Source: Candidatus Dojkabacteria bacterium
GTDB lineage: Bacteria; Patescibacteriota; Dojkabacteria; B142; JAFGFJ01
DNA: 64,000 nt
NCBI GenBank assembly: GCA_016931155.1
Contig: JAFGFJ010000006.1
Coordinates: 141,115 to 205,114, forward strand
Reading direction: 5' to 3'
Shown: piece by piece, positions 9,699 through 59,876 of the stretch
Layout: the number at the start of each line of letters is the position of its first letter
How positions within the stretch are numbered: the stretch's first letter is position 1
Translations under genes and position numbers: made by a program
Notes under the pieces: model-generated
What the model was told of the DNA's origin: nothing
The model's database searches: none
The model's input: only the letters and a program-made list of their open reading frames with translations

Positions 9699-9706
9699 GA
9701 AAATTT

Positions 9707-27371: not shown

Positions 27372-27633
27372 AATTTGTTTAAAATACTACAGGGTATTTT
27401 ATCACAAATAATGAGCTTTTTGCTAGTTGTTGTTGCTTTTGACTTTGTCCAACCCATAACAATAAAATTGTAGTATAATAAGGCAACCGCATAAGATAGT
27501 ATCTAGTTGTGAGTAGGGGAGAAATCCCAAAAAACTATCAAAATTTAAATCCTCCCTGATCTTTACAAAATTTTTGTTAACAAAGAACCATATGAACAAC
27601 AATATCGACAATCTACAATCGGGAGAAGTAGTA

Positions 27634-39663: not shown

Positions 39664-40455
39664 TTGGCTCATAGAAAAAGAAAAGATATGGGAAAAACAA
39701 ATACGGTTGATCTTCTTTTTGAACTGATAAAAACCAATTTTAAACTCAGGTACAACAATTCAGTACTGGGTTTTGTCTGGGTTCTTCTAAAGCCATTTTT
39801 AACATTTTTAGTTTTGTACATTGTTTTTTCCAACTTCAGGGGGAATTCGTCCATCGATAATTACACTATTTATCTTCTATCGGGAATAATACTTTTTACT
39901 TTTATTAACGAAGGAGTACTTTTTGGACTAAACTCTCTCCTTGATAAAGCAAACATTATTCTTAAAGTTAATTTCAATAAGATAATTGCAGTGCTCAGTT
40001 CGGAGATCATGGCTCTGGTAAATTTTCTGATCAATCTTCTGATTTTGTCTATCTTTATTATTTTTAATCCAGTAAACATTTCTGTTCTGAGTTTTTTTTA
40101 CTTATTGTTCATACTTTTTGTAATCTCGTTAGGATTAGTTTCAATTTCTTTGTTCTCCAGTATTCTTATCTTAAAATTCAGGGATTTGCAGAATATTGCT
40201 GAACTTGCAATGCAACTTTTATTTTATGGTTCAGCTATTTTTTATCCCGTAGAGCAAATCCCCGGGAGGTTTCAATGGCTTATTAAACTGAATCCACTCT
40301 ATAATCTGATTGATGCCGCAAGAAATGCTCTTGTGCAGGGGGAGATTATCAATACGAAAGAAGTGCTGATCATTTTTTTTGTTATTGTTTTCTTCTTCTC
40401 AATTGGGGCAATCTTCTTTTCCAGGAATGTAAAAAAGGTAGCTGAATACTTCTAA
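39664..40455 (+). CDS. ABC-2 type polysaccharide/teichoic-acid exporter permease (Wzm/TagG-like)
   Basis: 263 aa and 6 TM. The N-terminal LIKTNFKLRYNNSVLGFVWVLLKP is typical of ABC-2 permeases. Confidence 0.7.
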   Translation: MAHRKRKDMGKTNTVDLLFELIKTNFKLRYNNSVLGFVWVLLKPFLTFLVLYIVFSNFRGNSSIDNYTIYLLSGIILFTFINEGVLFGLNSLLDKANIILKVNFNKIIAVLSSEIMALVNFLINLLILSIFIIFNPVNISVLSFFYLLFILFVISLGLVSISLFSSILILKFRDLQNIAELAMQLLFYGSAIFYPVEQIPGRFQWLIKLNPLYNLIDAARNALVQGEIINTKEVLIIFFVIVFFFSIGAIFFSRNVKKVAEYF

Positions 40456-40456
40456 T

Positions 40457-41326
40457 ATGGGAAATCTATTCGAACCAAAGGTCTCAATTGTAGTAGTGAA
40501 TCTCAATGGTGAAGATGATACTTTCGAATGTGTGGACTCATTGAAAAAGATTGGCTACAAGAATTATGAAATTGTTGTTGTTGATAATGGCTCTTCAAAG
40601 AAGAATTACGAAAGACTTAAGAAAAACTTAAAAGGCGTAACAATTCTCAGGAAAGAGGAAAATCTGGGTTTTACGGGAGGCTATAATGTTGGTATAAGAT
40701 ACGCAAAGGCATCAGGTTCCAGATATGTTGCCATATTAAATAACGATACTGTGGTAGATGAAAAATGGCTTTCTGAATTTGTAAAACTTGCTAAAGAAGA
40801 AAAGAAATTTGGAGTGATAGGGTCAAAATCGTGTTACTACGGTCAAAGAGAAATTATCCAGACCGCTGGTCTTGCCTTCAATAAGTTCTGGGCTACTTTT
40901 TATGAAATCGGAAACGGTCTTAGAGATGAGGATCATTATAATGAAAACAGAGAAGTAACAGCTGTGAGTGGAGTTTCTATGCTGATGGATTTAAAAAACC
41001 CGCTAGAGGATATATTATTTGATGAGGAACTATTTCTCTATTACGAGGATGTTGATCTATGTTTGAGAATGAAGAGAAATGGTTATAAAGTGCTGTATTG
41101 TGCCAAGTCAAAAGTCTATCATAAGATTTCAAGGACAGCCAAAAAGGTGAAAGGTCTTAGCTTGTATTGGGGGATAAGGAACAGGCTTAGAGTCATAAGA
41201 AGATACTATGGTTTTATTCCATATGTCTGGGTATTTATCAGACTTTTGGTAAAGGGGGTAGTAGATTTGTCTGTGATGGATAAGGTATCAGCTAAGGCTT
41301 ATTTTAGGGGATTATGTAATAAATAA
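40457..41326 (+). CDS. family 2 glycosyltransferase
   Basis: VSIVVVNLNGEDDT, VVVDNGS and ILNNDTVVDEKWL (DxD region). Confidence 0.8.
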   Translation: MGNLFEPKVSIVVVNLNGEDDTFECVDSLKKIGYKNYEIVVVDNGSSKKNYERLKKNLKGVTILRKEENLGFTGGYNVGIRYAKASGSRYVAILNNDTVVDEKWLSEFVKLAKEEKKFGVIGSKSCYYGQREIIQTAGLAFNKFWATFYEIGNGLRDEDHYNENREVTAVSGVSMLMDLKNPLEDILFDEELFLYYEDVDLCLRMKRNGYKVLYCAKSKVYHKISRTAKKVKGLSLYWGIRNRLRVIRRYYGFIPYVWVFIRLLVKGVVDLSVMDKVSAKAYFRGLCNK

Positions 41327-41454
41327 TGAAAAATTTAGTTGAGATAAAAAATCTTTCTAAGGTGTTTGAAGTACCAAGAGAGAAAAAACAGACCTTGAAG
41401 AGCCATTTTCTGGATTTATTTAGAAGAACGAGTAAGGAATTTATACTATTATAG
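41326..41454 (+). pseudogene. 43-codon remnant of an ABC transporter ATPase (Wzt/TagH-like) N-terminus
   Basis: MKNLVEIKNLSKVFEVPREKKQTLKSHFLDLFRRTSKEFILL then stop. It parallels the N-terminus of the full wzt-like gene on the opposite strand and is coupled to GT2 by a TAATG overlap. Confidence 0.5.
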
Positions 41455-41462
41455 TAAGGAAT

Positions 41463-42668
41463 CTATTGTTCCCATTTACTACTGACTAGGATATTCCCTC
41501 TTTGTCCGTTGTGAGGAGACTTAGTATTTACAGTAAAAATGGTTCCCTTGGGATAGAAGTCATAATACTTTGTCTCACTTTCACCAAATACAACAAAATT
41601 TACAAAGTACTTCCCCGATAACAGCGATGTATTATAGATATTAAACGAAATACTTCTTTTTTCCTTGTTTATTAATATCTTTGCGTACTTTGTATTTGTT
41701 CCGAATAAGTAGAAACCAGTCTTTTCATCATATATACCCAATCCTATGTGTAGGTTCTCGACGCCCTTATTTATTTTATAATCAATTCTGAACTTTATAT
41801 TATCACCCACTGTGAAGTTGTTCCCATCTTTTTTATTCTGATCTTCTATTGCTATTTTCGAAATTCTTACTTGTCCTGTGCCAGGCCTCTCTTTTTCTGG
41901 TGATCTATTTTCTGATTTTATTTCAGATTTATTGACCAATTCATGGTAGTGAAATATTATGTCTCTCACTTCCCCTTCTTTTGCAATTTTCCCGTCCACT
42001 AGTAGAACAGCTCTATCGGAAAACTCTTCTACTTGAGATAAAGAATGAGAAACAAATATGATTGTCTTTCCCAGCTTTTTCATTTTCCTAAAGTATTCAA
42101 AGCACTTTTCTTGAAAACCCATATCTCCAACAGCCAAGACTTCATCAAGTATATATATGTCAGCATCTGCTTTGATAGCTATTGAGAACGCTAGTCTCAC
42201 CTGCATTCCAGAAGAGAAGTTTTTAATGGGAACGTCTAGAAATTCTCTGATTTCAGCGAAATCAACAATCTCATTAAATTTTTCGTTGATAAATTTTCTA
42301 GTCATTCCAAGAATTGTTCCATTCAAGTAAATATTTTCTCTAGCACTTAATTCTGGGTTAAAGCCAACGCCAAGCTCTAAGAAGGGTATTATTTTGCCTC
42401 TCGTAACTATATTTCCTGAATCTGGAAGATATATTTGTGAAATAAGTTTTAACAAGGTCGATTTCCCGGATCCATTTTTTCCGATTATGCTGATAAACTC
42501 TCCTTTGTTTATTTCGAGAGTTAATCTGTCTATTGCTATAAATTTTTTTTTCCTTATTGGCCTGAAAAGATTGAAAAATCGAGATTTTATTGTGTCTCTT
42601 TTTTCACTGACTATTTCAAAACTTTTCGTTACATTATCTATTTTAATTGCTGTTTCAGTTTTCTTCAT
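41463..42668 (-). CDS. ABC transporter ATP-binding protein with C-terminal Wzt-like carbohydrate-binding domain
   Basis: Walker A GKNGSGKSTLLK, signature FSSGMQVRLAFS, Walker B ILDEVLAVGD, plus a ~150-aa beta-rich C-terminal domain. Confidence 0.8.
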   Translation of the reverse strand: MKKTETAIKIDNVTKSFEIVSEKRDTIKSRFFNLFRPIRKKKFIAIDRLTLEINKGEFISIIGKNGSGKSTLLKLISQIYLPDSGNIVTRGKIIPFLELGVGFNPELSARENIYLNGTILGMTRKFINEKFNEIVDFAEIREFLDVPIKNFSSGMQVRLAFSIAIKADADIYILDEVLAVGDMGFQEKCFEYFRKMKKLGKTIIFVSHSLSQVEEFSDRAVLLVDGKIAKEGEVRDIIFHYHELVNKSEIKSENRSPEKERPGTGQVRISKIAIEDQNKKDGNNFTVGDNIKFRIDYKINKGVENLHIGLGIYDEKTGFYLFGTNTKYAKILINKEKRSISFNIYNTSLLSGKYFVNFVVFGESETKYYDFYPKGTIFTVNTKSPHNGQRGNILVSSKWEQ

Positions 42669-42735
42669 TAGTGGTATTTTGTATAAATTTTATTCTTATT
42701 GAAATACAGAAGTCGATTTCACCAGTATGATTATT

Positions 42736-43686
42736 TTACTCTGATAATTTTCCTTTAATTTTTTGTAGAGAATTAATGACTTTCGTCAGACCAGTTTTTT
42801 GAGATACCTTAATTATGTGTTTATTTTTACTAAGAATTTCAGATAATTGCTCATTTTGATTCCTTAAAGAAGTTAATTCTTCTTGCTGTTCTACTGTTTT
42901 CCTTTCTAGATTATGCAAAAAAGTTAGCCTTTCTGTGAGATCGGGAGTTTCACTATAGCTAAAGATATTTTTGGGAATTCTACTTAAAGAGCTACGGTTA
43001 GAAGTCGTCAGATTAATGTAGTTTTGAAAAGAATCCTCGGCAAGCAGATACTGCTCTTTATAATATTTTGAGAATATTCTATCTTCAATATAACTTGGAT
43101 CTAAACCTTGAGATTGGATTGCGTCAAGCAAAGAATATAGTCCACGAAAAATTACAAAATCTCTTGGAATTGGGAAATTCCAAGTCCACTCATAATCGAT
43201 GTTATAAATAATTTTTCTATTTATTGTGAAATTATCGAGGTTCAGATCAAGAATTCCTGGTTTAATCCATGCAGTCTCTTCATTTAGGTGATGGCCAAAA
43301 ATATTATTAAACTCCTTATTTATAATGGGAGGTTTTTTTATCTGATCCAATTTGTTAATAATCTCTTCAAGATAAAACTTAAATAGTTCATCTATATCTT
43401 TATAATCTCTTTGTTGAACACTCCTATACATTCTATTAAGTAGATTCTCCCCATTTATATATTTAAAAATTACTCTGTTATCAACTATGTTAGGTTTTAA
43501 TATTTGAAAGGGGAGATGGTAACTCGAAAGGAGTTTGTATTTGTTGTAAAAACTTCTTAGGAATTGTAGAGATGAAGGGAATGCAATTTTGTGTACAAGT
43601 AGGGATGTGCCATTACTAACAAAAGCAGTCATTAATCTAAACTTTTCCTTTCTATTTTGGTTATGTCTTACGTATAAAACTTTCAT
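42736..43686 (-). CDS. hypothetical protein with C-terminal coiled coil
   Basis: 316 aa. No motif recognised. Sits in the glycan locus. Confidence 0.45.
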   Translation of the reverse strand: MKVLYVRHNQNRKEKFRLMTAFVSNGTSLLVHKIAFPSSLQFLRSFYNKYKLLSSYHLPFQILKPNIVDNRVIFKYINGENLLNRMYRSVQQRDYKDIDELFKFYLEEIINKLDQIKKPPIINKEFNNIFGHHLNEETAWIKPGILDLNLDNFTINRKIIYNIDYEWTWNFPIPRDFVIFRGLYSLLDAIQSQGLDPSYIEDRIFSKYYKEQYLLAEDSFQNYINLTTSNRSSLSRIPKNIFSYSETPDLTERLTFLHNLERKTVEQQEELTSLRNQNEQLSEILSKNKHIIKVSQKTGLTKVINSLQKIKGKLSE

Positions 43687-43695
43687 ATAACTTAC

Positions 43696-44586
43696 TTATT
43701 TCTTAATACTAATTTGAGACTTTTTTGCTACGATTAGAAATGCGTTAGAAAATATGTCAAAATACCCTGATTCAATTAATTGCCTTGCGACCCTTGCCTC
43801 ATTAAATAGTTCTGTTCTGTTGGTAGAATGTTTGGATGGATATATTCCTGCCTTCGGAAGAAAATTATTTGTGGGCAGATACTGGTCACTAAATATTTCA
43901 TCAGGAAAGTGATAGTGAGGTAGGGGATAATAGAAAAAGATATCTGAAAATCCTGTATCCTTGAGCATTTTACTGATTTCATCTTTACTGTAGGTTTGTA
44001 TGCCGTTATGTTTTGGGTACCCCTCGATACTCTCAAAAAACCCTACAGTGTGATCCTCTGGAGCTCCAGCCCAGTATTTTAGTCCAAACTTATTTTCTAT
44101 GGCAAGAATAAACTCACCATTTGTCTTCATAAGAGAACAGATTTTTTTGAGTAGCGTTAAGGCTGGATTTTTTGTTTTAATAAATAACCCTGAATATTCT
44201 AAGACACCGATAGCAGTGATAAAATCATACTTACTATCCGTTTCATATTTCATGACGTCGATGGGGAAAACCTTTAAATTTTTTAACTTTTTATATCTTT
44301 CTTTTATGATTTTTGCTCTTCTATCTGAAATTTCAATACAATCTACATGTTTCACTCTTGAGGTAAAAAGTCCTGTCAGTGCTCCACAGCCCCCGCCAAT
44401 TTCAAGCAAATTACCGCTTGAATGGAAATCATACCAATTAAGTAAGTTTTCTCTTCCTGGTGACAGATGAGCTATGAAAGGCCAAATCCCTGTTCTAATG
44501 AGATTATCCCTCTTTCGCTGTGATCCAACAGATTCCAGTAAAGCTTTTTCCACTTCATCCCCATCTGAATAAACCATAGTATTCAT
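43696..44586 (-). CDS. class I SAM-dependent methyltransferase
   Basis: LEIGGGCGALTGLF (motif I), CIEIS, and a typical fold length. Confidence 0.7.
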   Translation of the reverse strand: MNTMVYSDGDEVEKALLESVGSQRKRDNLIRTGIWPFIAHLSPGRENLLNWYDFHSSGNLLEIGGGCGALTGLFTSRVKHVDCIEISDRRAKIIKERYKKLKNLKVFPIDVMKYETDSKYDFITAIGVLEYSGLFIKTKNPALTLLKKICSLMKTNGEFILAIENKFGLKYWAGAPEDHTVGFFESIEGYPKHNGIQTYSKDEISKMLKDTGFSDIFFYYPLPHYHFPDEIFSDQYLPTNNFLPKAGIYPSKHSTNRTELFNEARVARQLIESGYFDIFSNAFLIVAKKSQISIKK

Positions 44587-44677
44587 ATTTGCTTAAGATG
44601 TTGTAATGTTATCACTAACTAGGACATTAAAAAATTGAATTGCTAAACCTTTGTTAATTAGATTCACTTTAAATGTG

Positions 44678-47600
44678 CTATATACCATTTAACTCACTGA
44701 AGGAGTTATTGTATCTTACTCTTTGCGTTGTGAATATATTTTGATCGGAATAAATTATTACTGGTCCTCCAGTTTGTTCATTGTATTGTGGAGTTATAGT
44801 CTGACCGGGGTTAACTCTTCCATCAAAGATAATAACGCCTTGAACCGTGATTATTACAATCGCTGTGGAATTAATCGATGGATTCCCAATAAGAATCCAT
44901 GCCTCTCTTATAACGCCACCCCCGTCACTGTCGTCATACCATGTATAGAACTGTTTCTTGTTTAATTTATTGTTATCAATAGATTTTGTTTCATTAAAGG
45001 AGTTGATATATCTGACTCTTTGTGTCGCATATATGGGTTGCGTACTAGTTACTACTATTGAACCTGTACAACATAGCTCATCCCATTGTACTGAGTTGCT
45101 ACTATTCGCATACACATTTATTACCTTATCGGGTTGTCCTGGAATTCTTAATGTGACCGATGTGTTTGAATCATTAGGATTGCCTATTAGTATGTATGCT
45201 TCTCTATGAATGCCTCCATTTTCGCTGTCATCGTACCAAGGGAAAAAGTGATTACTTTCTATATCTGAATTAGTTACAGCCATTATTTCGTTGAATGAAT
45301 CCATAAATTTAACTCTTTGAGAAGAATAAATATTTACTGGTATACCAGTACTTTTTTCTACAGCAGTTATCTTTACAGGGCCACCTCTTTGTTCGTCAAA
45401 TTGAAAACAAGTGCTTTCTCCGGGGGATGCAGACTGTGTATGTAATATAACTTGTCCGCTTGTATTTTTGAACTGAACTGTAACATCAACGTTTGCAGAA
45501 ACAGTTTCTGGTATTCCTGCGATGATCCATGCCTCTCTTACGACTCCATCGTCACTATCATCATACCAGGGGAAGTACAGCAAATTGGCTAACTCACTTG
45601 AAGGGAAACCCGTGATTTCTTCAAATGATTCGTTATACCTTACCCTTACCGAAGAGTAGATTGGTATACCGTTAGTACTGTTAACAACAATTGGTCCTCC
45701 GGACTGTTCATTAAACTGTGGAGTGATTCTTTCTCCTGGGGCTAACGTTTGATCTATTTCCAAGACACCTTTGTACCAAACCTCTATACTAGCAACTTCA
45801 GCTTGGCTTTGGTTTGCTATTATAAGCCATGCTTCTCTTGGTATACCAATGTCACTGTCGTCATACCATGGGAAGTAGTATTTTGTATCAAGATTTCTTT
45901 CAGTATATCCTACTAAGGAGTTGTCCAATTGCAGGAGCCCGTAACCGGTTTGTGTATCAAACCCTGATGATGCTACATCTTGTGCACTGCTCCTTAATCT
46001 AATATTAATATCTATTGGTGTTATGTTCGGGTGGATACTTTTCATGAGTGCAACCGCTGCACTCACCTGAGGTGCGGCAAAACTTGTACCAATTACTGTT
46101 GTAGGTGAAGTGTTTGAAGTGAAGGCATTGAAAAGGTTTACATTCGTTTCATCTGAACAGTTGTTTTTATTGGGATAGCATGAATAAGATTGTGATGCAA
46201 TTTGGGGTCCACTATCTCCAACAGGGGCAACAAGATCCAACTCGTCTCCATAGTTTGAGTAACTTGCACGGTTGTCATTCGCATCTGTCGCTCCGACTGC
46301 TATTACATTTGGAAATGAAGCAGGGAAGTAGTTTGCAATATCCGAGTTGTCATTTCCTGCCGCAGCTACAACAACAACTCCGGCATTGACAGCGTCATTA
46401 ATTGCCACTTGCATCATAGGGTCAGTCCCGACTCCTCTGAGGCTCATGTTTATAACATCAGCACCATTTGCTACAGCATATTCAATAGCCTGTGAAATTA
46501 CGAAAGAATCAGCAACTGTCCTGTAGTCTTTGCTTGAGTTTGAACACGTAAGATCAAGATTCCCGGAAGCATCCTGGCACATTGATCTGTCATTCGGATA
46601 AAAAACTTTAATTGGCATGATGCTTGCATTGTGTGCTATTCCAATTACCTTGTTTGGTGCAGTATCACCTGTTCTCCCCGCTAGAATTGTTGTAACAAGA
46701 GTGCCATGTCCATAGTCATCATTTGCATGGTCGATTTTGGCAAGCTCATTTGCATTACAGTCATTGGCAGGATTTCCATCAATAGCTCTAAGCATGCAAA
46801 AATAATCCTGCACGGCATCATATGGACTTACAATATTTACACCACTTAATTCTGAGGATTGTGAATATTGCCTTTCATAACCTTTATAACTGCCGTTTAC
46901 GAAGGTACCATCTTGTGTATTATTTGTTGGATACTCAAGGTAGATTCCATTAAATTTTCCAACAGTATAGGAGTTATCATTTCCAGCGTCATATACATAG
47001 TTTTCATAGGATGCCCCTGTATCAAGAACAGCAACAACCACGGAGGGGTCGCCTCCACAGGAGTTGTCACTTGTACATCCTCCCATTTCTTTCCATGCCT
47101 CAGGAAGTTTGGTTTTTTCAGCTGTCCAGTGAGTAGCAGTATCATAGTCGCTAGGGATAGATCTTTCAGGGTCAGTATTGTTCCAGCTCTCAGTTTTGTA
47201 AATATAGATTGGCTGAGGATTAGTCTCGGGAGCCACAAGAAGAATCTCTCCTATGAGTTGATCTATTTTTGAATTGTCGACCTTATAGATTATTTTATTT
47301 CCGAGTTCTGCTAAGCTCTCTACACCACGTGACAGTGTTAGTAATTTTTCTTTGGTGAGTGCGTTCGATTGGGAAGAGTTGAGTGCTACCCGTGCCTTTG
47401 TTCCATCAATAATGTAGTTTCTATTGTCTATTAAATTGTTCCTTTTAGCATCAGCTGATCGAAGATTGGAGTTTAGTGGTTTCATTTGGACTGCACGAGA
47501 AGCAACAGTTTCTAGTTGATTGTAGATTCTTCCAGGACAGGCTGTTGCCGCAAGATCTCTGTGTCCGTAGAGTCCAGTTCCGCTTTTTGGGTCACCACCT

Positions 47601-48637: not shown

Positions 48638-48780
48638 TTTGTGTTTTTCTTATAAGGTATTTTATCAGAAGTTTGCGTCGGATTGTAGAGGATGCATGGA
48701 TTGTACACATCTCAAATACTGAGGTGCAAACTAATTAGTCTACTAATAAATACCTGTTTTGGAGTCTAAAACCGAACAGC

Positions 48781-50964: not shown

Positions 50965-52519
50965 GGGTATTAATTTTAAGTTGTTTTAGACTCCTATTAT
51001 ATTGAATTAGCATAACAGAATTAAGTACATATCCACTATGAGTCTCTTGTTCTATACATATAGTTTCGCTTGCTGGCAGATAAGAACTTTCAGCCAGTAT
51101 AAAATAATCATTATAAGGACTGTTATTGTATCTGATTTTATCTCTTTCCAGGATTGTAGCAACAAAAGCTGGCTCCAGGTGATTAATAATGTTTCCTTCT
51201 GAGGTGTCATATAGTTCAACGGGAAACATGATTTCTCCTTTCGCCTTTTTGTCTATTTGTGATTCGAACTTATAATATGATGCAGTTGTAATGTAGACTC
51301 TATCCCAAGTAAATAGGCTTTCCTCTCCCGTAGAAAAAAAATAACCATTGAGAAAAATTACGAATAGTATTACCCAAGTCAAAATATTTACTTTTTGGGT
51401 TTTAAACACAATTGACCATATTCCGATTGCCGAAAGAATATATACGTAGGGAATTAAATAAAGTAAAAATCTTCTATCATTCCAGTTGTACAAGAATACC
51501 CAGAAGATAACAGTGAAGAAAAAAAATAAAAAAATATTTAGACAAAGAACCCTGTGATTATACTGTTTTAACAGAATATTTATAAAGCCAATGGCTAATA
51601 GCAGCAAGAGTGGTATTCCAAATATACTGATGGCACCTGCCAGATAAAACAAAACAGAATTTGCGTGGGGAATAATTAACTCTAATTGCTTAACATTAGT
51701 ATAAAGAGGATTCCTGAATAAAAGAAATTTATATAAAAACCATGGTCCTGTAGTTATAAGGATAATCTCAGTATGGAAAAAAATCTGTTTTATGAATAAC
51801 TTTATACTTTTCTTGTCTTTTGCTTTGTTCTTAATTACTTGTTTTAAGAAGAAATCAGTAACTAATACTAATTCGTAAATTAGGATAAGGAAAAATGAAA
51901 AATTCTGAAAAGAGGTTGATATGCATAAAAACAATATAGCAAAATTACTTTTTCCCTTTATCAAAAATAGAACAGCCAGGCAAATAAATAAGATTGCATA
52001 GTAATCAGATAAAATGAAATTACTAAAGTTTTGCATCGTAAAGTTGCAGAAAAAAAGTATACTAACTGCGGAAGTTATCGCAAAAAGTACATTTGTTTTT
52101 TTAAGTTGAATTTTCCTGCCAAAAACTTCAATTGTTTGTGTCTGTTTCTCTTTTGCGGAGAATCTCTTTAGTAACCCATCAATGCATGCCCACAAGGTAA
52201 AAGTTATCCCTGCAAAAACCATTTGGTTTAAGAGAGGAAGCATTCTCAGTGTATTGACTTCTGAGAGTGCTCTAATAATAAGAGGAAGTCCGGGATTTCT
52301 AAAAGAAATTGTTGAGTTCTCTCCAAATCTTAGACCATTAGCAATCCAATCAAATCCATCTGACGTGAAGTATTTATAAGTCCTTAAGAATTCATTATCA
52401 GAATTTAAATTGGTGATCAGGAAAAATTTGGCGATTAAAATAACGACCGCACTGAGAGCGAATAAGAACAATAAATGTTTTTTGGAATTTTTTTTGAGTA
52501 GCTGATTAAGTCTGCTCAT
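50948..52519 (-). CDS. polytopic membrane protein with C-terminal soluble domain, possibly GT-C glycosyltransferase or polymerase-like
   Basis: 523 aa with more than 10 TM helices and a ~120-aa C-terminal non-membrane domain. A TSDGFDW acidic motif lies in the first loop. Architecture-based call only. Confidence 0.4.
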   Translation of the reverse strand: MSRLNQLLKKNSKKHLLFLFALSAVVILIAKFFLITNLNSDNEFLRTYKYFTSDGFDWIANGLRFGENSTISFRNPGLPLIIRALSEVNTLRMLPLLNQMVFAGITFTLWACIDGLLKRFSAKEKQTQTIEVFGRKIQLKKTNVLFAITSAVSILFFCNFTMQNFSNFILSDYYAILFICLAVLFLIKGKSNFAILFLCISTSFQNFSFFLILIYELVLVTDFFLKQVIKNKAKDKKSIKLFIKQIFFHTEIILITTGPWFLYKFLLFRNPLYTNVKQLELIIPHANSVLFYLAGAISIFGIPLLLLLAIGFINILLKQYNHRVLCLNIFLFFFFTVIFWVFLYNWNDRRFLLYLIPYVYILSAIGIWSIVFKTQKVNILTWVILFVIFLNGYFFSTGEESLFTWDRVYITTASYYKFESQIDKKAKGEIMFPVELYDTSEGNIINHLEPAFVATILERDKIRYNNSPYNDYFILAESSYLPASETICIEQETHSGYVLNSVMLIQYNRSLKQLKINTHECKN

Positions 52520-52847
52520 TGCTAATTAAATAGGGCTTTTATCATTATAGATTCAATTTCTCGTAAGATATTAGGTATATTATTCCTAATATTTTCTGTT
52601 TGCAATTTCCGGTTCTTGGTTAGTAGACGTATAACAACACTGCCTAGGAAGGCATTTTGTATTTCTAATGACTTCCAAAGGCAATTTACAATTTAGCTCA
52701 ATATGTCCACTCCTCATATGATATCCCATCAGATCAATATTTGTCGGGTTTTCGAGTTTACTCTAAACGATATTGCGACGTTGACATTACCATTTTAATT
52801 AAATACTATTCTTAAGAATTTCGCCAACTCCTTAAATTTAGAGACTA

Positions 52848-53591
52848 ATGGGAAATCTATTATCAATAATCATTCCAGCGTGGAATGAAGAAAATACTTT
52901 AGAAAAACTGGTTTCAAAGGTTAGGAAAATACGTCTTCCAGATGGAATTGAGAAGGAAATTATAATAATAGATGACTGCTCGACAGACAGGACGTTAGAG
53001 ATAATAAAGAATCTCGGGGAAAAGCATAAAGAGATCAAAGGACTTTCAAACTTAAAAAACAGCGGAAAATCGCAAACCGTAAAGAAAGGTATCCTTGCTT
53101 CAAGTGGTGATTACGTTGTTATTCAGGACGCAGATTTAGAATATGAGCCGGAAGAAATTCCTGAGATGCTTAAACTGTTGATAGATAAAGAATACGATGC
53201 CGTATACGGAAACAGATTTGGAAAGAAGAATAAGGTCATTTACTGGCAGAACTATTTTGGAAATAAAATGTTGACAGTCTTCTCAAATATCTTTACTTTT
53301 CCGAAACTAAAAACGTGGATACCGGATATGGAGGTCTGCTATAAATTAGTGAGAGGAGATGTAATGAGACAGATAGCAAAGATGATCGTATCGACAAGCA
53401 GGTTTGGACTCGAACCAGAAATTACTGCAAGACTTGCCTCATATAAATCAAGGGGAAAAAGAATAAAACTTGGCATACATCCTATTAGCTATTATCCGAG
53501 ATCAATTCAAGAAGGGAAGAAAATGAATGCGCTCAAACACGGATTTGAAGCACTGGTAGAAATTATAAAGTTTAATCTTCTTAAGAATTAG
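52848..53591 (+). CDS. GT2 polyprenyl-phosphate sugar synthase (DPM1/GtrB-like)
   Basis: LSIIIPAWNEENTL, IIIIDDCSTDRT and VVIQDADLEYEPEEI are typical of dolichyl/undecaprenyl-phosphate mannosyl/glucosyl transferases. Confidence 0.8.
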   Translation: MGNLLSIIIPAWNEENTLEKLVSKVRKIRLPDGIEKEIIIIDDCSTDRTLEIIKNLGEKHKEIKGLSNLKNSGKSQTVKKGILASSGDYVVIQDADLEYEPEEIPEMLKLLIDKEYDAVYGNRFGKKNKVIYWQNYFGNKMLTVFSNIFTFPKLKTWIPDMEVCYKLVRGDVMRQIAKMIVSTSRFGLEPEITARLASYKSRGKRIKLGIHPISYYPRSIQEGKKMNALKHGFEALVEIIKFNLLKN

Positions 53592-53615
53592 TTTTGCTCT
53601 GGTTTTTGTATCCCA

Positions 53616-54140
53616 CTATTTATAGGGTGCTTTTTTCCTAACCAGTAAAGTTTCTGATTCAGGATATGAGAATAGAACCTCAACTTCTTTTTCATTTATG
53701 TCCTTTCTGAATACATAGGATAATTCTTCGCCTCTGTTTTTGTCCGTGTCGATGTTGTTTGTTTCTATGTAGTCTAATTTAAACTTCTCTATGTAATAGT
53801 GTACTGGAGGTGCTAATCTCCAGTTCGTAGACAGACTGATCTTATTGTTGCTCTCATTAAGACTCAAAGTCTTTACATCAGTGATCATATTTTTCACATC
53901 ACAATTACTTTTCCAGGAGATTGTATAAGTAAAATTAATTGAAACCAAAGATATAATTAGAATAAAACCGGCTAATGCGTAACCTGAAAAGAGTGCACAC
54001 TTTTTTGCAGTATTTGTGAGCAAAGTCAGTGAGTTCAGTGCACTTACGAAACAGAAGAAAAATAAAGGAATTAGAAATATTGCTGTTCTCTCGATCAAGA
54101 ACTTTGTTCCAAGTATGTGGTGTTGAAGGATTGTACTCAA
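53616..54140 (-). CDS. membrane protein, likely C-terminal part of a frameshifted GT-C-like glycosyltransferase
   Basis: Two or three TM helices, then a ~100-aa soluble domain. The reading frame stays open upstream to 54311 and encodes further TM helices, overlapping the end of ORF 54245-55099. Confidence 0.45.
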   Translation of the reverse strand: MSTILQHHILGTKFLIERTAIFLIPLFFFCFVSALNSLTLLTNTAKKCALFSGYALAGFILIISLVSINFTYTISWKSNCDVKNMITDVKTLSLNESNNKISLSTNWRLAPPVHYYIEKFKLDYIETNNIDTDKNRGEELSYVFRKDINEKEVEVLFSYPESETLLVRKKAPYK

Positions 54141-54244
54141 AATACATATTGTCAGAATCGCAGTGGTTGAAATAACCGGATAATTCTTTTTGGATAAATT
54201 TTTACTTACGAGATAAAGGGTGGTAATAGAAGTAATAATATATA

Positions 54245-55099
54245 TCAGAAAATTAAAATGGTAAGTATTGTTTCGTGAGTTGGAGATAAATTGAATTTGT
54301 AAAGAGACGCTCTAACAAGAGAGCCAATGGTATCAGAAACAAAGTTGTTATCACCCCCATAATAAAGCAACTTTCTCTTTACGACCCTCCCCAAGGGGAT
54401 AAGTATTGATAAGAATGTTGTAACAGTAATTATTATTATTGGATAGCTGTTATATAATATTTTTTTCACTCTACCAAAAAAATTCTGTTTCATCCTTATG
54501 TTTTCAAATATAGACAGGCAAAATAGAAAGGAAATCAGAGCAATGAAATAATTCAATAATGTAAAGTTGGTTAATACCGAAAGCCAGCTCGTTATAAGAC
54601 TGGCGAAAAGATAGATCCTCTTTTTTCGGTTCGATAAATATTCGATAAGAAAGTAAACGCTTGAAGCAACGAGTCCTGCCGCAAGTGCATAACCTCTTGC
54701 CAGGGAGAAAAAATCGAGGAGAAATATGTTTAAGTTTAGGAGTATAAAAGAAGTTATTTTAGCAGTTTTGCTTTTTACAAATTTTTCAACAAAAATGAAA
54801 GTGAAAAATAAATAAAGAAGGTGACCGATAAGACTTGGAAGTCTTAAGACAAATTCTGTGTTTCCAAAAAAGTTGTAAAAGATTTTAACCAATATGGTAT
54901 TTACAATGTGATTATTTGCGATTTCTGCCGAAAAATTATTTGTAAGGATATCGAAAATATTTGTATGTACAAAAGTTTGAAATGTATATGCTTCGTCAAA
55001 AGTCAGAGAAAGATTGATTGCTCGATAGGTTGTGTAAGTAAAAAGTATTATTGAGATTAACACCATCGTGAACTTTACAGGAGAGATTCTCATTTGCAA
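54245..55099 (-). CDS. membrane protein, likely N-terminal part of a GT-C-like glycosyltransferase
   Basis: 284 aa with 8 or more TM helices. LTFDEAYTF in the first loop resembles the GT-C DE motif. It ends abruptly inside a hydrophobic segment. Confidence 0.45.
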   Translation of the reverse strand: MQMRISPVKFTMVLISIILFTYTTYRAINLSLTFDEAYTFQTFVHTNIFDILTNNFSAEIANNHIVNTILVKIFYNFFGNTEFVLRLPSLIGHLLYLFFTFIFVEKFVKSKTAKITSFILLNLNIFLLDFFSLARGYALAAGLVASSVYFLIEYLSNRKKRIYLFASLITSWLSVLTNFTLLNYFIALISFLFCLSIFENIRMKQNFFGRVKKILYNSYPIIIITVTTFLSILIPLGRVVKRKLLYYGGDNNFVSDTIGSLVRASLYKFNLSPTHETILTILIF

Positions 55100-55271
55100 A
55101 CTTTTTAATATAATTCTGTAAGACTGTCAGTGCTGGAAAAGCGGTCACCAGTAAATCTACTTTTTTCTTTGCTGTTCAAATAGGTTTTCAGCCCTTTGTA
55201 GATTGGAGTATTCTACCAGACAAGTGCCATACAGGTAAGTAAATGATGTAAAACAAAAATTATTTTTCGCA

Positions 55272-55634
55272 TTGAAATATTCCAACAAAAAGGGTATTAT
55301 CCGAATCCGTATATCTTTATTCTATAAGTTAGCCAACAAAACAGTGGGTCAGAAAATTGTTGATGCAGGAAAATGTGACTACTGCAGAGATAGAAAAAAA
55401 GCAGTTTACTACACAGGACTATATTCTCAAGATGAGGATTTAATGGAAATACACTGCAATACTTGCAGGGCATCCTGGGAGGCGGATGGCACTCCTAGGG
55501 CAATACCATCACAATCAAAATTGGAGCAGTTGGGAGTGTTTAGTGAAGTTGTAGAAAATAGTTTGCCTTTTACTCCAGGAACCAAAGGTGAATGGTTTTG
55601 CAATTATGTGGGATCAGCAGAAGCTTTGGGTTGA
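55272..55634 (+). CDS. hypothetical zinc-ribbon-like protein
   Basis: CDYC...CNTC pairs spaced about 25 aa apart. Weak; may not be expressed. Confidence 0.3.
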   Translation: MKYSNKKGIIRIRISLFYKLANKTVGQKIVDAGKCDYCRDRKKAVYYTGLYSQDEDLMEIHCNTCRASWEADGTPRAIPSQSKLEQLGVFSEVVENSLPFTPGTKGEWFCNYVGSAEALG

Positions 55635-56909
55635 CCTAATCTTTTGATCCTTCTGTATTTTAGATGCAAATATCCAATACCCAAAAATCAATCCAGCCGT
55701 TACAGACAGCACCCCTAATTGTACATTGACAATTTCCCCGATACTCGAATGATACTGGCTTATCAAAAATATTTGTGCAACTATGGCTATAGTTGCCACC
55801 ACTACGTGCCCTCTTTTGTTGATTGCTATGAGGTAGCTGTGGAAGATATTAATAAAAGAAAGCATTACCATAGCTAGACCAAACTTTCCTATGTATTTGG
55901 CAGTTTCTTTGAAAGAATCACCGTAAAGAAGCCTTACCATAAATTCAGGGAAGAAAACATAGAGTAGTAAAACCGAGGCAACAGCTAAAGTGGCGACCAT
56001 CAATACTGAAACAAAGTTACTTTCGTAATTGCTACCTTTGTTTTTTGCCTTTACGGTAGCCGGGATAATGGCATTTCCAATGCTTGCAGAAAGAAAAAAT
56101 ATTACCCGTCCAAGAATTGAGGTGCTTGCATATATTCCTGATTCGTGGTCTGTCAGATAATGTTTCGCCAGAATAACATCAGCAATCAGAAAAATATTAA
56201 TTGCTGAAGACACAAGAAGTATTGTGAAAAATTCTTTTATATCAAAACTGATTTTTATTTCTTCAATTTTTTCCTTGATTATTTCTTTTATACTGAATAG
56301 TGCATATAATAATGAAACGATACTCCCGGCTACGAGACCTGCTAGAGCACCTGGTGTTTTGAATCCTTGAGTTACTAAAAGCGTTCCTATAAACAATCTA
56401 AATAAAATCTCTATCACATATGCGATAGCGAGTTTTTTGTATTTCTCCAGTCCAAGAAGAACACCAAATAGAATTGACTTCTCAGTCATAAACAGCAGAT
56501 AGGCAAGAATTATTAAATATGACGACGAAGATTCTATTCTCAGGAATTCTTTTAATGAAGGGATCAGGAATATCATTAGTATTCCGATCGCAATTGTTAT
56601 CAGAAAAACAATTTTGCTGAGATGAATTATGAAATACTTCATCCTGTCCTTTTCATTTCTGGAAGCAAGGTCAGATATGTTTTTCGCTGAGAATACTTGT
56701 AAGGCTGTGGCAGGAAGTGTGATGACATAGGTGAGTGAAGCAAGAGCTACAAAATTTCCATATTCAGTGGTTCCTAAAAGGTTTCCAAGGATCAATTGAA
56801 ACAGGTAAGTCCCGAAGTTAACTATCATGGTAGCGGAGAAGAGAATTGCACTGCCTCTGATTAGAGTGTTTGATTTTAGAGAATTTATTTTCTTGAAAAT
56901 TCTGTTCAT
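55614..56909 (-). CDS. oligosaccharide/polysaccharide flippase (Wzx, MOP superfamily)
   Basis: 431 aa, about 12-14 TM, with a Wzx-like N-terminus (NTLIRGSAILFSATMIVNFGTYLFQLILGNLLG). Confidence 0.7.
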   Translation of the reverse strand: MNRIFKKINSLKSNTLIRGSAILFSATMIVNFGTYLFQLILGNLLGTTEYGNFVALASLTYVITLPATALQVFSAKNISDLASRNEKDRMKYFIIHLSKIVFLITIAIGILMIFLIPSLKEFLRIESSSSYLIILAYLLFMTEKSILFGVLLGLEKYKKLAIAYVIEILFRLFIGTLLVTQGFKTPGALAGLVAGSIVSLLYALFSIKEIIKEKIEEIKISFDIKEFFTILLVSSAINIFLIADVILAKHYLTDHESGIYASTSILGRVIFFLSASIGNAIIPATVKAKNKGSNYESNFVSVLMVATLAVASVLLLYVFFPEFMVRLLYGDSFKETAKYIGKFGLAMVMLSFINIFHSYLIAINKRGHVVVATIAIVAQIFLISQYHSSIGEIVNVQLGVLSVTAGLIFGYWIFASKIQKDQKIRSTQSFC

Positions 56910-57007
56910 AAAGATATTTTACTGTCTGGTTATTGAGTTGTCCCCAACAACACGATAGTACTCAAAAACTAATAGAAAAAAAAGTAAGCCGGATAATAAA
57001 GAGGCTT

Positions 57008-57499
57008 TCACTTTTTCTTTACTCTAAACACAAAAAACTTGTAAAAGAGAAAACTGGTAATAAGCTGGATAGATGTTGCGAAAAATTTTGCAAGGAGTTT
57101 GTTGCCATCATCCCCTTCTACAAAACCAAAAGTTTCCCGGAGATTTTCTGAAATGAGACTCGCTATATTTAAGACTATGGCACTGACGTTTATTGCCACG
57201 AAAAGAAGAAGGAATAAGTTGTTTGAAAGAAAATTAAATCCCTGAACGAGCATAAATTTCCCGAATTCCAGTGCGACTTTCTTTTCTTCACTTTGCCAAA
57301 CCCAGAACCGGTTGATCACGTAGTTTACGACTATTGCAATGCTAACGGAAATAGAGTTGGCCAAAAGGAATGGGAGTCCAGCTTTTACCCCGATCGAGTA
57401 CAGGGCAAAATCAATAGCAAAAGCGGTTATCCCTGTAATAAAGAATTTGATAAAGCGAGGAGTGAAAAAAGTGTCTTTAACCTTTTTTATTATATTCAT
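57008..57499 (-). CDS. GtrA family membrane protein
   Basis: 163 aa, 4 TM. RFIKFFITGITAFAIDFALY...VNYVINRFWVW matches the GtrA pattern. Confidence 0.75.
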   Translation of the reverse strand: MNIIKKVKDTFFTPRFIKFFITGITAFAIDFALYSIGVKAGLPFLLANSISVSIAIVVNYVINRFWVWQSEEKKVALEFGKFMLVQGFNFLSNNLFLLLFVAINVSAIVLNIASLISENLRETFGFVEGDDGNKLLAKFFATSIQLITSFLFYKFFVFRVKKK

Positions 57500-58205
57500 T
57501 GAAATTGTATTTTGTGAGCCTGATTTTAATCAATTCCGAGAGTGTTTTAAAGTAGTGGAAGGGTTTTACCTTGCTGTCTTCTTTGTGTTCCCACTTTACG
57601 GCAAGCTCTTTTATTTTATAACCCAGCCTTTGTGCGAGGTATAGGATTTCAAAGTCAAAGCCCCATCTCTCAATTTTCTGCATGATAAAAAGCTTCCGGC
57701 ATTTTTTATTGAAGAGTTTGAATCCTGCCTGAGTGTCTTTTATATCTTTGACTAAAATTGTGTTAATAAGAAAATTTCCAACTCTACCCATTACTTTACG
57801 TGGAAGAGAAGTGTTAACTTTTGAATTTGCCATTGCGCGTGAGGCAATTACAATATCGTATTGATCTTTGTACTTTAAAAATTTATCAAGCTCTTCAATA
57901 GGGGTAGAAAGATCACTGTCGCAGAGGTACATATAGTCACCTTTAGCAGCAAGCATTCCTGTTCTGGTAGCATATCCCTTTCCACGGTTCGGCTGATATT
58001 CAAGACCTATGATTTTTACATTTTTTCTCTCGTGTTTCTTTATGAAATCAATTACAACTTCGGTAGTTTTGTCTTTTGAACCGTCACTAACTACAATTAT
58101 TTCACTTTCAAAATTTTTCTTCCCCAAAAAACAGAAGATTTCCTCAAGTGAAGGACGTAGTCTTTTTTCTTCGTTGTAACAAGGGATTACTACTGATAAA
58201 AACAT
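57477..58205 (-). CDS. GT2 polyprenyl-phosphate glycosyltransferase (GtrB/DPM1-like)
   Basis: FLSVVIPCYNEEKRL, IIVVSDGSKDKT and YMYLCDSDLSTP. It overlaps the GtrA-like gene by 23 nt. Confidence 0.8.
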   Translation of the reverse strand: MFLSVVIPCYNEEKRLRPSLEEIFCFLGKKNFESEIIVVSDGSKDKTTEVVIDFIKKHERKNVKIIGLEYQPNRGKGYATRTGMLAAKGDYMYLCDSDLSTPIEELDKFLKYKDQYDIVIASRAMANSKVNTSLPRKVMGRVGNFLINTILVKDIKDTQAGFKLFNKKCRKLFIMQKIERWGFDFEILYLAQRLGYKIKELAVKWEHKEDSKVKPFHYFKTLSELIKIRLTKYNFNEYNKKG

Positions 58206-58320
58206 TCTATGGTTAATAAATGCATAACTTCTTTGCTTATGCGTACTATTTTATCTATAGATCGAATGAGCGCCAATATCAAGGAAGTATATATTATTCC
58301 GGTTTATTTGAAAAACTCAA

Positions 58321-59700
58321 CTATTTGCCCGTCTTGCTGTATTCTTCCCCAAGAAGACTAGAAAATAACTGGACTTTCTCTGAAACCAGATTTTCATCTT
58401 TAGCTTCAATGCTGAGTCTCACAAATGGCTGAGTATTTGACTCTCTCAAGTTGAATCTCCAGTCAGTAAAATCGAAAGAAATCCCATCTATTTCATTATA
58501 CTTTCCCTCTTTGAATTTATCTTTTAACATTTCAAATATCGCCTTCGTATCTTTAATCTCAAAATTTATCTCTCCGCCTGTAGGATATTTTTCGTAATAG
58601 TCATCACAAAGTTCAGAAAGTTTCTTTTCGCTTTCTGAGAGAAGTTCGAGCATAAGGGCAATTGTAACCATACCCGAATCCCAGAAAAAATAATCTCTGT
58701 AATACATATGTGATGTCGTCTCAAATCCGAAAAGTGCGTTGTATTTTTGCATAGCTTCGCGCATGAAACTTCTTCCGGATTTTGACATGACAGGTATTCC
58801 TCCTGCATTAGAGATTTCTTCATGGGGTGCCCAGATGAGTCTTGTATCGTGAATAATTTTTGGCTTTTCTACTTTTTCTTTTCTTATCAGGTGGGAAGCG
58901 ATCAGGGGACCAGTGTAATAACCACTTGGAGCTCTTCCCTTACTGTCGATAAACGATGCTCTGTCGGCATCTCCATCAAAAGCAATTCCAAAATCAGCAT
59001 TCAAACTTTTTGTTTTTTCTCTAATTTCCCTTATATTTTTTTCTTCTGCGGGATTGGGTGGATGATTCGGAAAACTTCCGTCCGGTTTGAAATGCATCCT
59101 CGTAACATCGAGAGGTAAACCAGCAAAAACTATATCAAAAAACTTTCCTCCAAGCCCGTTACCTGCATCAACAACAACTTTGAGATCTCGTATTTTCTCT
59201 ATATTTATAAAACTCAAGACTTTTTTCCTGTAATCCTGTATCAAATCTTTGTTAATGATTTTTCCTTTCGGAGGACGGGACGGGAAGTTGTTTTCAATGA
59301 TTATTTTTTTAATTTTCTCGAAGCCTGTATTTCCTGCCACAACTGAAGCATTTGCTCCTACTATTTTTGCTCCATTATATTCTTCCGGATTGTGAGAAGC
59401 GGTAACAATAACGGTGCCATCAATTTCTTTCATGCTTGCGGCAGAGAAGTACCCGATCTCGGTGATAATCTCTCCAAGAAAGTAAACGTCGCATCCCATA
59501 TCTGTAATTCCTTCTATGAGAGCCTTTGAGAAAGGTCTGGAAGACTGCCTCATGTCAATTCCTACAGCAATAACTTTTGCATTCCAAAATTTGACGAGAG
59601 CCTTACCTAGGTTTAGGTAGAAATTTTCGGTCAGCTCTTCTCCAATTATTCCACGGATATCGTAGGCGAGAAATATTTTATCAAGAAGGCTTTTGTCCAT
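58321..59700 (-). CDS. phosphomannomutase/phosphoglucomutase
   Basis: TASHNPEEYNGAKI (active-site Ser), GIAFDGDADR (metal-binding) and GGEINFE. The track ORF extends to 59796, but MDKSLLDKIFLAYDIRG at 59700 is the conserved start. Confidence 0.85.
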   Translation of the reverse strand: MDKSLLDKIFLAYDIRGIIGEELTENFYLNLGKALVKFWNAKVIAVGIDMRQSSRPFSKALIEGITDMGCDVYFLGEIITEIGYFSAASMKEIDGTVIVTASHNPEEYNGAKIVGANASVVAGNTGFEKIKKIIIENNFPSRPPKGKIINKDLIQDYRKKVLSFINIEKIRDLKVVVDAGNGLGGKFFDIVFAGLPLDVTRMHFKPDGSFPNHPPNPAEEKNIREIREKTKSLNADFGIAFDGDADRASFIDSKGRAPSGYYTGPLIASHLIRKEKVEKPKIIHDTRLIWAPHEEISNAGGIPVMSKSGRSFMREAMQKYNALFGFETTSHMYYRDYFFWDSGMVTIALMLELLSESEKKLSELCDDYYEKYPTGGEINFEIKDTKAIFEMLKDKFKEGKYNEIDGISFDFTDWRFNLRESNTQPFVRLSIEAKDENLVSEKVQLFSSLLGEEYSKTGK

Positions 59701-59761: not shown

Positions 59762-59876
59762 TAAACCTGTAATTGAAGCTCGTAGAGTATTGGCAAAATC
59801 AGGCTTAAATTTGCGATTTAAGCTCACAGAATCTTGGTATAACCAATCTTAAACCTGCAAGTGAAGTACGTAGAGT
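59762..59876. promoter_or_regulatory. 27-bp imperfect direct repeat pair flanking an 8-bp-stem hairpin, upstream of the phosphomannomutase gene
   Basis: taaacctgtaattgaagctcgtagagt (59762-59788) and taaacctgcaagtgaagtacgtagagt (59850-59876) match at 23 of 27 positions. GCTTAAAT-ttgcg-ATTTAAGC sits at 59803-59823. Confidence 0.35.

Follow-up and report, generated by a model that had tools for sequence, protein, structure and literature searches.

A locus of about 20 kb in a Candidatus Dojkabacteria genome probably encodes a pathway that builds a capped glycopolymer inside the cell, exports it through an ATP-binding cassette (ABC) transporter and decorates it outside the membrane. The locus (positions 39664 to 59700) lies within a 64,000-nucleotide stretch of a metagenome-assembled genome, hereafter the window, and takes up some 20 kb of a 560-kb contig; the 523-amino-acid (aa) protein encoded at 50948-52519 is identical to NCBI JW796_02405. 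Bacteria in the Candidate Phyla Radiation (CPR; Patescibacteria) are ultra-small and mostly host-attached, and their surface chemistry is almost unknown. Our literature searches on CPR glycan pathways found no description of CPR glycan assembly. The locus most likely consists of two parts, an ABC-transporter-dependent glycan pathway and two sets of extracytoplasmic glycosylation genes, as judged from the family and fold identities of the encoded proteins, their conserved catalytic residues and their conserved gene neighbourhoods.

The exporter is encoded by a pair of genes, as had been proposed in an initial annotation of the window. Wzm, an ABC-2 permease of 263 aa (39664-40455, plus strand), matches PF01061 ABC2_membrane (E 3.5e-19) and, below cut-off, the NCBIfam model of the galactan export permease Wzm/RfbD. 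Wzt (401 aa; 41463-42668, minus strand) joins an ABC ATPase domain (PF00005) to a C-terminal carbohydrate-binding module (Wzt_C, PF14524) at residues 259-384 (E 2e-23). The closest solved structure to Wzt is the full-length Aquifex O-antigen transporter WzmWzt (7K2T/8DKU, E ~1e-65), with an alignment that spans residues 8-358 and therefore reaches into the binding module. Gene neighbourhoods were compared by tblastn of the window proteins against all fetched loci, together with precomputed neighbourhood annotations (L001 and similar numbers denote related loci), and orthologs of Wzm with 42-48% identity adjoin Wzt in L006, L025 and L027. According to published work, systems in which only terminated chains are exported can be recognized by a carbohydrate-binding module on Wzt, the other hallmark being a coiled-coil protein (PMC11231755), and chain terminators bear a coiled-coil ruler (PMC11231755; PMC3482155).

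Two adjacent genes on the minus strand are proposed to encode the halves of a split chain terminator. The methyltransferase half would be an S-adenosylmethionine (SAM) methyltransferase of 296 aa (43696-44586), recognized by PF13489, PF08242 and other class I methyltransferase models. Its gene ends 10 nt upstream of that for a 316-aa protein (42736-43686), proposed as the kinase half and ruler on the strength of a predicted fold, a C-terminal coiled coil and invariant residues. The resulting order of methyltransferase, kinase and coiled coil is that of WbdD, the chain terminator of Escherichia coli O9a, which adds first a phosphate and then a methyl group at the non-reducing end of the O-antigen (PMC3482155). 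Where two SAM methyltransferases had been counted, only the one at 43696-44586 is found; the product of 42736-43686, presumably the second, has no match in Pfam or NCBIfam and no methyltransferase signature, and it is a kinase-fold protein with a coiled coil.

The AlphaFold2 (AF2) model of this protein (predicted local distance difference test score, pLDDT, 92) has a two-lobed domain followed by long helices at residues 250-315 (pLDDT 80-96). A Foldseek comparison with the PDB returned APH(3')-Ia, MTR kinase, the choline kinase LicA, macrolide phosphotransferases and Rio kinase. Four residues, K33, D147, N152 and D164, are invariant in alignments of the family and fit the Lys, D-x4-N, D pattern of kinase-like phosphotransferases. 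A single-sequence search of the PDB gave nothing useful, and a profile built from stand-alone family members matched coiled-coil proteins only, over the C-terminal third (approximately residues 195-315). A word-indexed search found the protein itself alone, whereas an exhaustive search of representative sequences found 1248 homologs. The family has more than 1,200 members at 50% clustering, with no Pfam hit among the 32 members scanned, and includes fusions to modules of the GT2, RgpF, WbsX, WsaF and methyltransferase types. In the public annotation the gene is represented by the 231-aa JW796_02385, which starts at residue 86 and thus lacks K33, while homologs align from residue 3; this annotation appears to be wrong, as does that of a frameshifted glycosyltransferase gene described below.

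The association of these genes with the exporter is conserved. In three independent metagenomic loci (L024, L025/L026 and L027/L028), the gene immediately upstream of a kinase homolog encodes an ortholog of the methyltransferase (38-50% identity), and in both of the loci with enough flanking sequence the pair adjoins orthologs of Wzm and of Wzt with its Wzt_C domain. Because this arrangement recurs across loci, Wzm, Wzt with its carbohydrate-binding module, the methyltransferase and the kinase/coiled-coil protein are regarded as one conserved functional module. In L027 (6053-8899), the kinase domain forms the N terminus of a 948-aa protein that also has two GT2 modules, a fusion of terminator and polymerase as in Klebsiella O7 and O12; the genes before it are those for the methyltransferase ortholog, Wzm and Wzt. 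The gene that follows this fusion on the opposite strand (8955-10433) encodes a 492-aa protein with no Pfam hit and no tblastn match to either of the polytopic glycosyltransferases of the window.

Candidates for the synthesis of the chain itself are also present. A two-module enzyme of 727 aa (48781-50964, minus strand) combines a GT2 domain (PF00535, residues 8-179) with a GT4 domain (PF13439/PF00534, residues 355-630) and contains no transmembrane segment; this GT2-GT4 fusion, already recognized in the initial annotation, is a candidate polymerase. A second cytoplasmic GT2 enzyme, of 289 aa (40457-41326, plus strand; PF00535, E 1e-22), begins directly past the stop codon of wzm and has a below-cut-off match to the rhamnosyltransferase subfamily TIGR01556. 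Its homologs, at 30-37% identity, adjoin the family of the 523-aa protein in L002, L008, L009, L011, L015 and L021, and it is a candidate adaptor or backbone transferase. At the far end of the locus, a phosphohexomutase of the PMM/PGM family (58321-59700, minus strand) contains PGM_PMM domains I-IV. It likely starts at the ATG at 59700 rather than at the TTG at 59796, Pfam domain I beginning at residue 40 of the longer open reading frame (ORF). A phosphomannomutase supplying GDP-mannose had been suggested, and a four-domain PMM/PGM enzyme is indeed encoded; its sugar specificity is not fixed by the NCBIfam matches, all of which fall below cut-off (370 bits for PMM/PGM against a cut-off of 618, and 330 bits for archaeal GlmM against 439).

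The extracytoplasmic part of the locus centres on two polytopic enzymes of the GT-C class. The 523-aa protein (50948-52519, minus strand), whose gene shares the last 17 nt of its 3' end with the start of the GT2-GT4 gene, belongs to an unclassified family: it has no match in Pfam or NCBIfam, nor any sequence match in the PDB when searched as a single sequence and as a profile. A word-indexed search found eight homologs, two of them with PF13231 PMT_2. Across the eight relatives, D54 and W58 in the first loop and the set W346/D348/R350/F351 are invariant. The AF2 model (pLDDT 71; predicted TM-score 0.75), in which a small C-terminal domain is poorly modelled, assigns the protein to the GT-C fold, the top 21 PDB matches all being GT-C enzymes (ALG9, PglB, STT3, ArnT, EmbA/B/C, Pmt and PIG-U) with TM-scores that are modest, at approximately 0.4, and alike across all GT-C classes. 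No Wzy or WaaL structure occurs among the 50 PDB matches listed.

The second enzyme belongs to the PMT_2 family, also described as 'GT39-like' or RgtA-like, and is encoded at 53616-55099 (minus strand), where a split gene had been noted. Frame analysis and homologs show that the two fragments belong to one gene, interrupted by a single frameshift within a T-rich run near 54250. Once repaired, the protein of approximately 494 aa matches 119 proteins, many of which carry PF13231, and its alignments to the best hits (~480 aa) span 94-99% of its length; searches of the PDB with the N-terminal fragment, as single sequence and as profile, gave nothing useful. D35-E36 in loop 1 is invariant in the family, and so are R338 and W396; the latter two are encoded downstream of the break, so a real frameshift would leave a truncated and inactive enzyme. 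The sole identical protein returned is the 282-aa N-terminal fragment JW796_02420 of the NCBI annotation. An alternative genetic code with UGA read as sense, known from some CPR lineages, does not account for the split, as the fragments lie in different frames, the read-through contains further stops and TGA ends other, intact genes. Neither GT-C protein of the window has a Wzy_C or O-antigen ligase Pfam hit, or a PF02366 PMT or MIR domain, their homologs carrying PF13231 PMT_2 only. The GT-C fold together with the invariant acidic residues of loop 1 (D54 in the 523-aa protein, D35-E36 in the split gene) rules out that these enzymes are Wzy polymerases or WaaL ligases. A Wzx/Wzy-dependent heteropolysaccharide pathway is likewise ruled out, no Wzy-like protein being present.

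The locus also encodes two small GT2 enzymes resembling polyprenyl-phosphate glycosyltransferases. The first (247 aa; 52848-53591, plus strand; PF00535, E 8e-33) is divergently oriented from the 523-aa GT-C gene, and its nearest PDB relatives are the Pyrococcus synthase PfDPMS (5MLZ, E 3e-19), GtrB and ArnC. The second (242 aa; 57477-58205, minus strand; PF00535, E 6e-25), which is 28% identical to the first, is nearest to GtrB (5EKP, E 2e-13), followed by PfDPMS and ArnC. NCBIfam matches of the two comprise AglJ, PgfS, ArnC and a dolichyl-phosphate hexose transferase, all equivalogs below cut-off; matches to NodC and PgaC are weak and far below cut-off. The enzymes are therefore DPM1/GtrB-like, as originally annotated, and a cellulose- or chitin-synthase-like identity is ruled out by their size of 242-247 aa, the absence of any transmembrane or hydrophobic segment and their polyprenyl-phosphate transferase relatives. 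With this result and the exclusion of polymerases and ligases for the GT-C enzymes, the logic by which polyprenyl-phosphate sugars feed GT-C transferases stands.

Two further membrane proteins could move such sugars. A GtrA-family protein of 163 aa (57008-57499, minus strand; PF04138 GtrA_DPMS_TM, E 1.7e-17, 64 bits against a cut-off of 26) is encoded by a gene that overlaps the upstream 242-aa GT2 gene by 23 nt. A 431-aa polytopic protein (55614-56909, minus strand) with about ten hydrophobic segments matches PF01943 Polysacc_synt (37.7 bits against a cut-off of 28.2), which places it in the MOP/Wzx superfamily, and has no match in NCBIfam; it is a candidate flippase for lipid-linked sugars. 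Both a GtrA-like protein and a Wzx flippase had been claimed, and the Pfam matches bear these claims out.

The genomic setting of the 523-aa GT-C family links the two parts of the locus. The search located members in 18 genome loci, which belong to Dojkabacteria, Saccharibacteria and Microgenomates and, for more distant members, to Chloroflexota, Acidobacteriota and other phyla. In eight loci (L001, L002, L006, L009, L013, L014, L021 and L022), Wzt is encoded no more than 10 kb from the GT-C ortholog, and so is Wzm in those whose flank shows it. The 247-aa GT2 ortholog is adjacent or within approximately 5 kb at 59-64% identity in L006, L008, L010 and L012, and nearby at 42% identity in L001. 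An ortholog of the GT2-GT4 enzyme adjoins the GT-C ortholog in L001 (34% identity) and L002/L003 (30%), and the PMT_2 GT-C family occurs beside it in L001 and approximately 6 kb away in L008. By contrast, tblastn detected no homolog of the Wzx-like protein in the related loci, and homologs of the split GT-C in non-CPR bacteria have no Wzm/Wzt within 8 kb (L004 and L005). The same gene combinations thus recur on independent contigs of CPR and other bacteria, so their clustering at this locus is not due to chance and the gene set is coherent, as had been suggested. Furthermore, since the GT-C family co-localizes with the Wzm/Wzt pathway elsewhere, the exported polymer itself is most likely the acceptor, by analogy with the streptococcal group A carbohydrate, the Klebsiella O2 gml system and mycobacterial arabinogalactan.

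Taken together, these genes suggest the following pathway, for which we infer the sugars, the chemistry of the cap, the acceptor and the final anchor. In the cytoplasm, the 289-aa GT2 and the GT2-GT4 enzyme would extend a polyprenol-linked glycan. The kinase-fold protein, positioned by its coiled coil, would then phosphorylate the non-reducing end and the methyltransferase would methylate it, stopping growth at a chain length set by the coiled coil and leaving a cap predicted to be methyl-phosphate or closely related to it. The carbohydrate-binding module of Wzt would recognize the capped end, such that Wzm/Wzt would export finished chains only. For decoration at the outer face, the two small GT2 enzymes would make polyprenyl-phosphate sugars, which GtrA and/or the Wzx-like protein would flip across the membrane, and the two GT-C enzymes, one of them frameshifted in the assembly, would transfer the sugar onto the exported polymer as side chains. 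The phosphohexomutase would supply sugar 1-phosphate. The locus therefore yields a testable prediction: an end-capped polymer of controlled length with side-chain sugars attached outside the membrane.

Several observations weigh against this pathway. Among the window ORFs scanned there is no initiating phosphoglycosyltransferase of the WecA, TagO or WbaP type and no ligase of the LCP or WaaL type, so the genes for its first and last steps are unseen and may lie elsewhere; a nucleotide-sugar pyrophosphorylase is likewise absent among these ORFs. The methyltransferase and the kinase have no sequence similarity to WbdD in PDB searches with single sequences and profiles (E up to 10; E <= 0.01 in one search), so that the resemblance is one of architecture and fold class only, and the kinase is assigned from motifs and a predicted fold. 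The Wzx-like assignment depends on a single Pfam hit of 37.7 bits, the frameshifted GT-C set may be inactive, and a large amidase/protease gene (44678-48637) interrupts the gene string. Finally, the acceptor of the GT-C enzymes is not readable from sequence, and enzymes of the PMT_2 type can also act on proteins or lipids.

This last point bears on protein O-glycosylation, in which the GT-Cs would use polyprenyl-phosphate mannose or glucose on Ser/Thr-rich surface proteins, in the manner of actinobacterial Pmt or streptococcal Pgf, and the ABC genes would be an unrelated neighbour. Such a role would agree with the PF13231 PMT_2 domain in homologs of both GT-Cs, with the invariant D-E motif of the split GT-C, which is typical of PMT/ArnT-type enzymes, and with the presence of PgfS among the below-cut-off matches of both small GT2 enzymes; moreover, a Thr/Pro-rich protein with an LPKSG-type C-terminal sorting signal is encoded just past the locus (60855-61544), and Ser/Thr/Pro-rich proteins occur elsewhere in the window. 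PMT_2, however, spans lipid- and glycan-modifying enzymes too, PF02366 PMT and MIR domains are missing from both GT-Cs, and the co-localization of the 523-aa family with Wzm/Wzt and GT2-GT4 in many genomes points to a polymer acceptor. The membrane protein at 17161-18393 and the protein at 27634-28548 (27574-28548 here), initially put forward as natural acceptors, have no Pfam domain and are encoded more than 11 kb away among housekeeping genes, with no detectable link to the locus. We consider protein O-glycosylation unlikely.

A rather improbable alternative is that the locus combines two independent adjacent systems, an ABC-exported capped glycan and one or two three-component systems acting on a different molecule, such as a lipid-anchored glycopolymer, a glycolipid or peptidoglycan. 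The genes for the 242-aa GT2, GtrA, the Wzx-like protein and the PMT_2 GT-C do form a separate same-strand string, the Wzx homolog is found in none of the related loci, and the split GT-C has non-CPR homologs without nearby Wzm/Wzt. The 523-aa GT-C and its GT2 partner, on the other hand, are tied to Wzm/Wzt loci, the two GT-C families co-occur in L001 and L008, and contiguous clustering in so small a genome is perhaps suggestive in itself. It is also conceivable, if very improbable, that the 523-aa GT-C acts as a ligase or oligosaccharyltransferase, taking the completed glycan after export from polyprenyl diphosphate to protein, wall or lipid. PglB and STT3 rank among its fold matches (ranks 3, 5 and 9-13), its gene adjoins and overlaps the polymerase gene, an adjacency that recurs in L001 and L002, and no LCP or WaaL-type ligase occurs in the window ORFs scanned or the annotated neighbour loci. 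The TM-scores, however, do not favour these structures over other GT-C classes, the small C-terminal domain is poorly modelled, and the constant pairing with a polyprenyl-monophosphate-type GT2 (59-64% identity) is the signature of a monosaccharide-transferring GT-C.

Beyond these alternatives, the 523-aa protein may found an unrecognized GT-C family that serves as a dedicated partner of Wzm/Wzt in bacteria without an outer membrane, at a step without a characterized equivalent. We regard this as a long shot; the step could be the ligation of the capped glycan to its final acceptor or the provision of an outer-face primer for anchoring. If true, the unrecognized GT-C and the split terminator would constitute a CPR-specific way to build a host-attachment surface.

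Decoration of an ABC-exported, capped polymer accordingly departs in part from the initial annotation. Every gene listed there is present where it was placed, with family identity borne out for all but one, and the proposed layer of polyprenyl-phosphate sugars and GT-C enzymes is retained. Its protein acceptors and its contrast with O-antigen pathways are not, since about half of a locus described as unlike a simple O-antigen is an O-antigen-type ABC pathway comprising Wzm, Wzt with its binding module, the polymerase candidate and the terminator pair.

The gene that interrupts the string had not been mentioned previously. It encodes a secreted protein of 1319 aa (44678-48637, minus strand) with N-acetylmuramoyl-L-alanine amidase (amidase_2, PF01510) and S8 subtilase (PF00082) domains, is on the same strand as the polymerase and terminator genes and lies between them. 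Its N terminus looks like a signal peptide, and its C-terminal region carries four repeats of about 100 aa, each starting with F/Y-x-WYDDS (WYDDS at residues 924, 1024, 1134 and 1233). The repeats have no Pfam match and, speculatively, might bind the glycan of the locus. The G+C content of the window is approximately 0.31-0.42, with its maximum of 0.42 at 46-48 kb, inside the subtilase region of this gene. A second peptidoglycan amidase of the window, an Amidase_3 enzyme whose linker is rich in Pro and Gln and whose tail is a coiled coil, is encoded at 25995-27371 (minus strand), and two such enzymes are noteworthy for so small a genome.

The 229-aa product of 60855-61544 (minus strand), just beyond the locus and on the same strand, consists in translation of a Thr/Pro-rich stalk, LPKSG, a hydrophobic segment and a basic tail, as in a sortase-type sorting signal, and has weak Ig-like/adhesin Pfam hits only. 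It would be a nearer candidate glycoprotein than those proposed initially. The latter, at 17161-18393 and 27574-28548 (both plus strand), are Ser/Thr/Pro-rich; in the first, a long N-terminal stretch of low complexity precedes a single hydrophobic segment. Directly upstream of wzm, a 238-aa ORF (38854-39570, plus strand) matches nothing in Pfam or NCBIfam, and an H-T-H-P ... S-D-T-D stretch in its product faintly resembles the motifs of metal-dependent isopeptidases. The locus is otherwise flanked by housekeeping genes (IleRS, signal peptidase, ParA/ParB, Lgt, Fmt, MurJ, RecA and ATP synthase subunits), identified from translations by eye and, for MurJ, Lgt and Amidase_3, by Pfam. Elsewhere in the window are genes for another wall-related protein, secreted and with an SH3_3 domain (19333-20580, plus strand) and, at 7239-10846 (plus strand), for an 819-aa phosphoketolase-like protein followed by an acetate-kinase-like protein, both recognized from translations by eye. 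A scan for promoters and terminators found promoters at chance level and did not define operons.

Among characterized pathways, the cytoplasmic part of the locus resembles the polymannan systems of E. coli O9a and Klebsiella pneumoniae O3, with which it shares the ABC-2 exporter and an ATPase with a C-terminal carbohydrate-binding module, the order of methyltransferase, kinase and coiled coil, a multi-module cytoplasmic polymerase and a phosphomannomutase-family gene within the cluster. The terminator of the locus is split into proteins of 296 and 316 aa, however, whereas WbdD is a single protein of 708 aa; its coiled coil, of approximately 65 residues, is much shorter than that of WbdD, and its kinase resembles aminoglycoside and choline kinases rather than the Src-like kinase of WbdD. 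Furthermore, the polymerase candidate combines GT2 and GT4 modules, and the window contains neither manC nor wecA. Unlike the hosts of O9a and O3, the host of the locus, as a CPR bacterium, is not known to have an outer membrane or lipopolysaccharide.

By published description, a likeness in kinase type is offered by a second type of terminator, the terminator-polymerase ORF6 of K. pneumoniae O7, in which a methyltransferase, a formerly unannotated kinase domain whose nearest structure is of the aminoglycoside-phosphotransferase type, and a coiled coil are associated with a methyl-phosphate cap (Kelly et al. 2024, PMC11231755). Homologs of the kinase of the locus are also fused to GT2, as in the 948-aa protein of L027, whereas the locus itself has a separate protein for each of the three functions, methyltransferase, kinase/coiled coil and polymerase.

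The extracytoplasmic part has its counterparts in GtrA/GtrB/GT-C systems such as streptococcal GacI/J/K/L, Klebsiella O2 gmlABC and Shigella gtr, which share a polyprenyl-phosphate GT2, a GtrA and/or Wzx-type flippase and a GT-C and which, as in the locus, are encoded beside an ABC-transporter-dependent polymer pathway. GacI/J/K/L acts on an ABC-exported rhamnan (10.1101/180810), and such three-component systems have been reviewed for Gram-positive wall polymers (PMC8035078) and Gram-negative O-antigens (PMC11127046). The locus differs in that its GT2 enzymes lack the C-terminal membrane helices of GtrB, one of them forming with the GtrA gene a split pair of catalytic and GtrA domains, that its 523-aa GT-C family is without a Pfam model, and that two sets are present, one of them frameshifted. 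It also differs from the streptococcal rhamnan type in that the window contains no rhamnose-synthesis genes.

The same logic, Wzm-Wzt export followed by GT-Cs that are fed by a GT2 polyprenyl-phosphate sugar synthase, underlies actinobacterial arabinogalactan and lipomannan, and Emb proteins are among the fold matches of the 523-aa GT-C, together with weak hits of the locus to galactan-exporter NCBIfam models. All matches are far below family cut-offs, however, and the locus encodes no proteins of Emb or Aft size and no arabinose or galactofuranose genes. To our knowledge, chain termination and a binding module on Wzt are not among the features of the mycobacterial system. The locus is therefore made of known kinds of parts, each with a counterpart in other bacteria, in a phylum with undescribed surface glycans. 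What sets it apart is that its terminator is split and that one of its GT-C families is unclassified, and the two uncharacterized families for which roles are predicted here, that of the kinase and that of the GT-C, could help to annotate many metagenomic glycan clusters.

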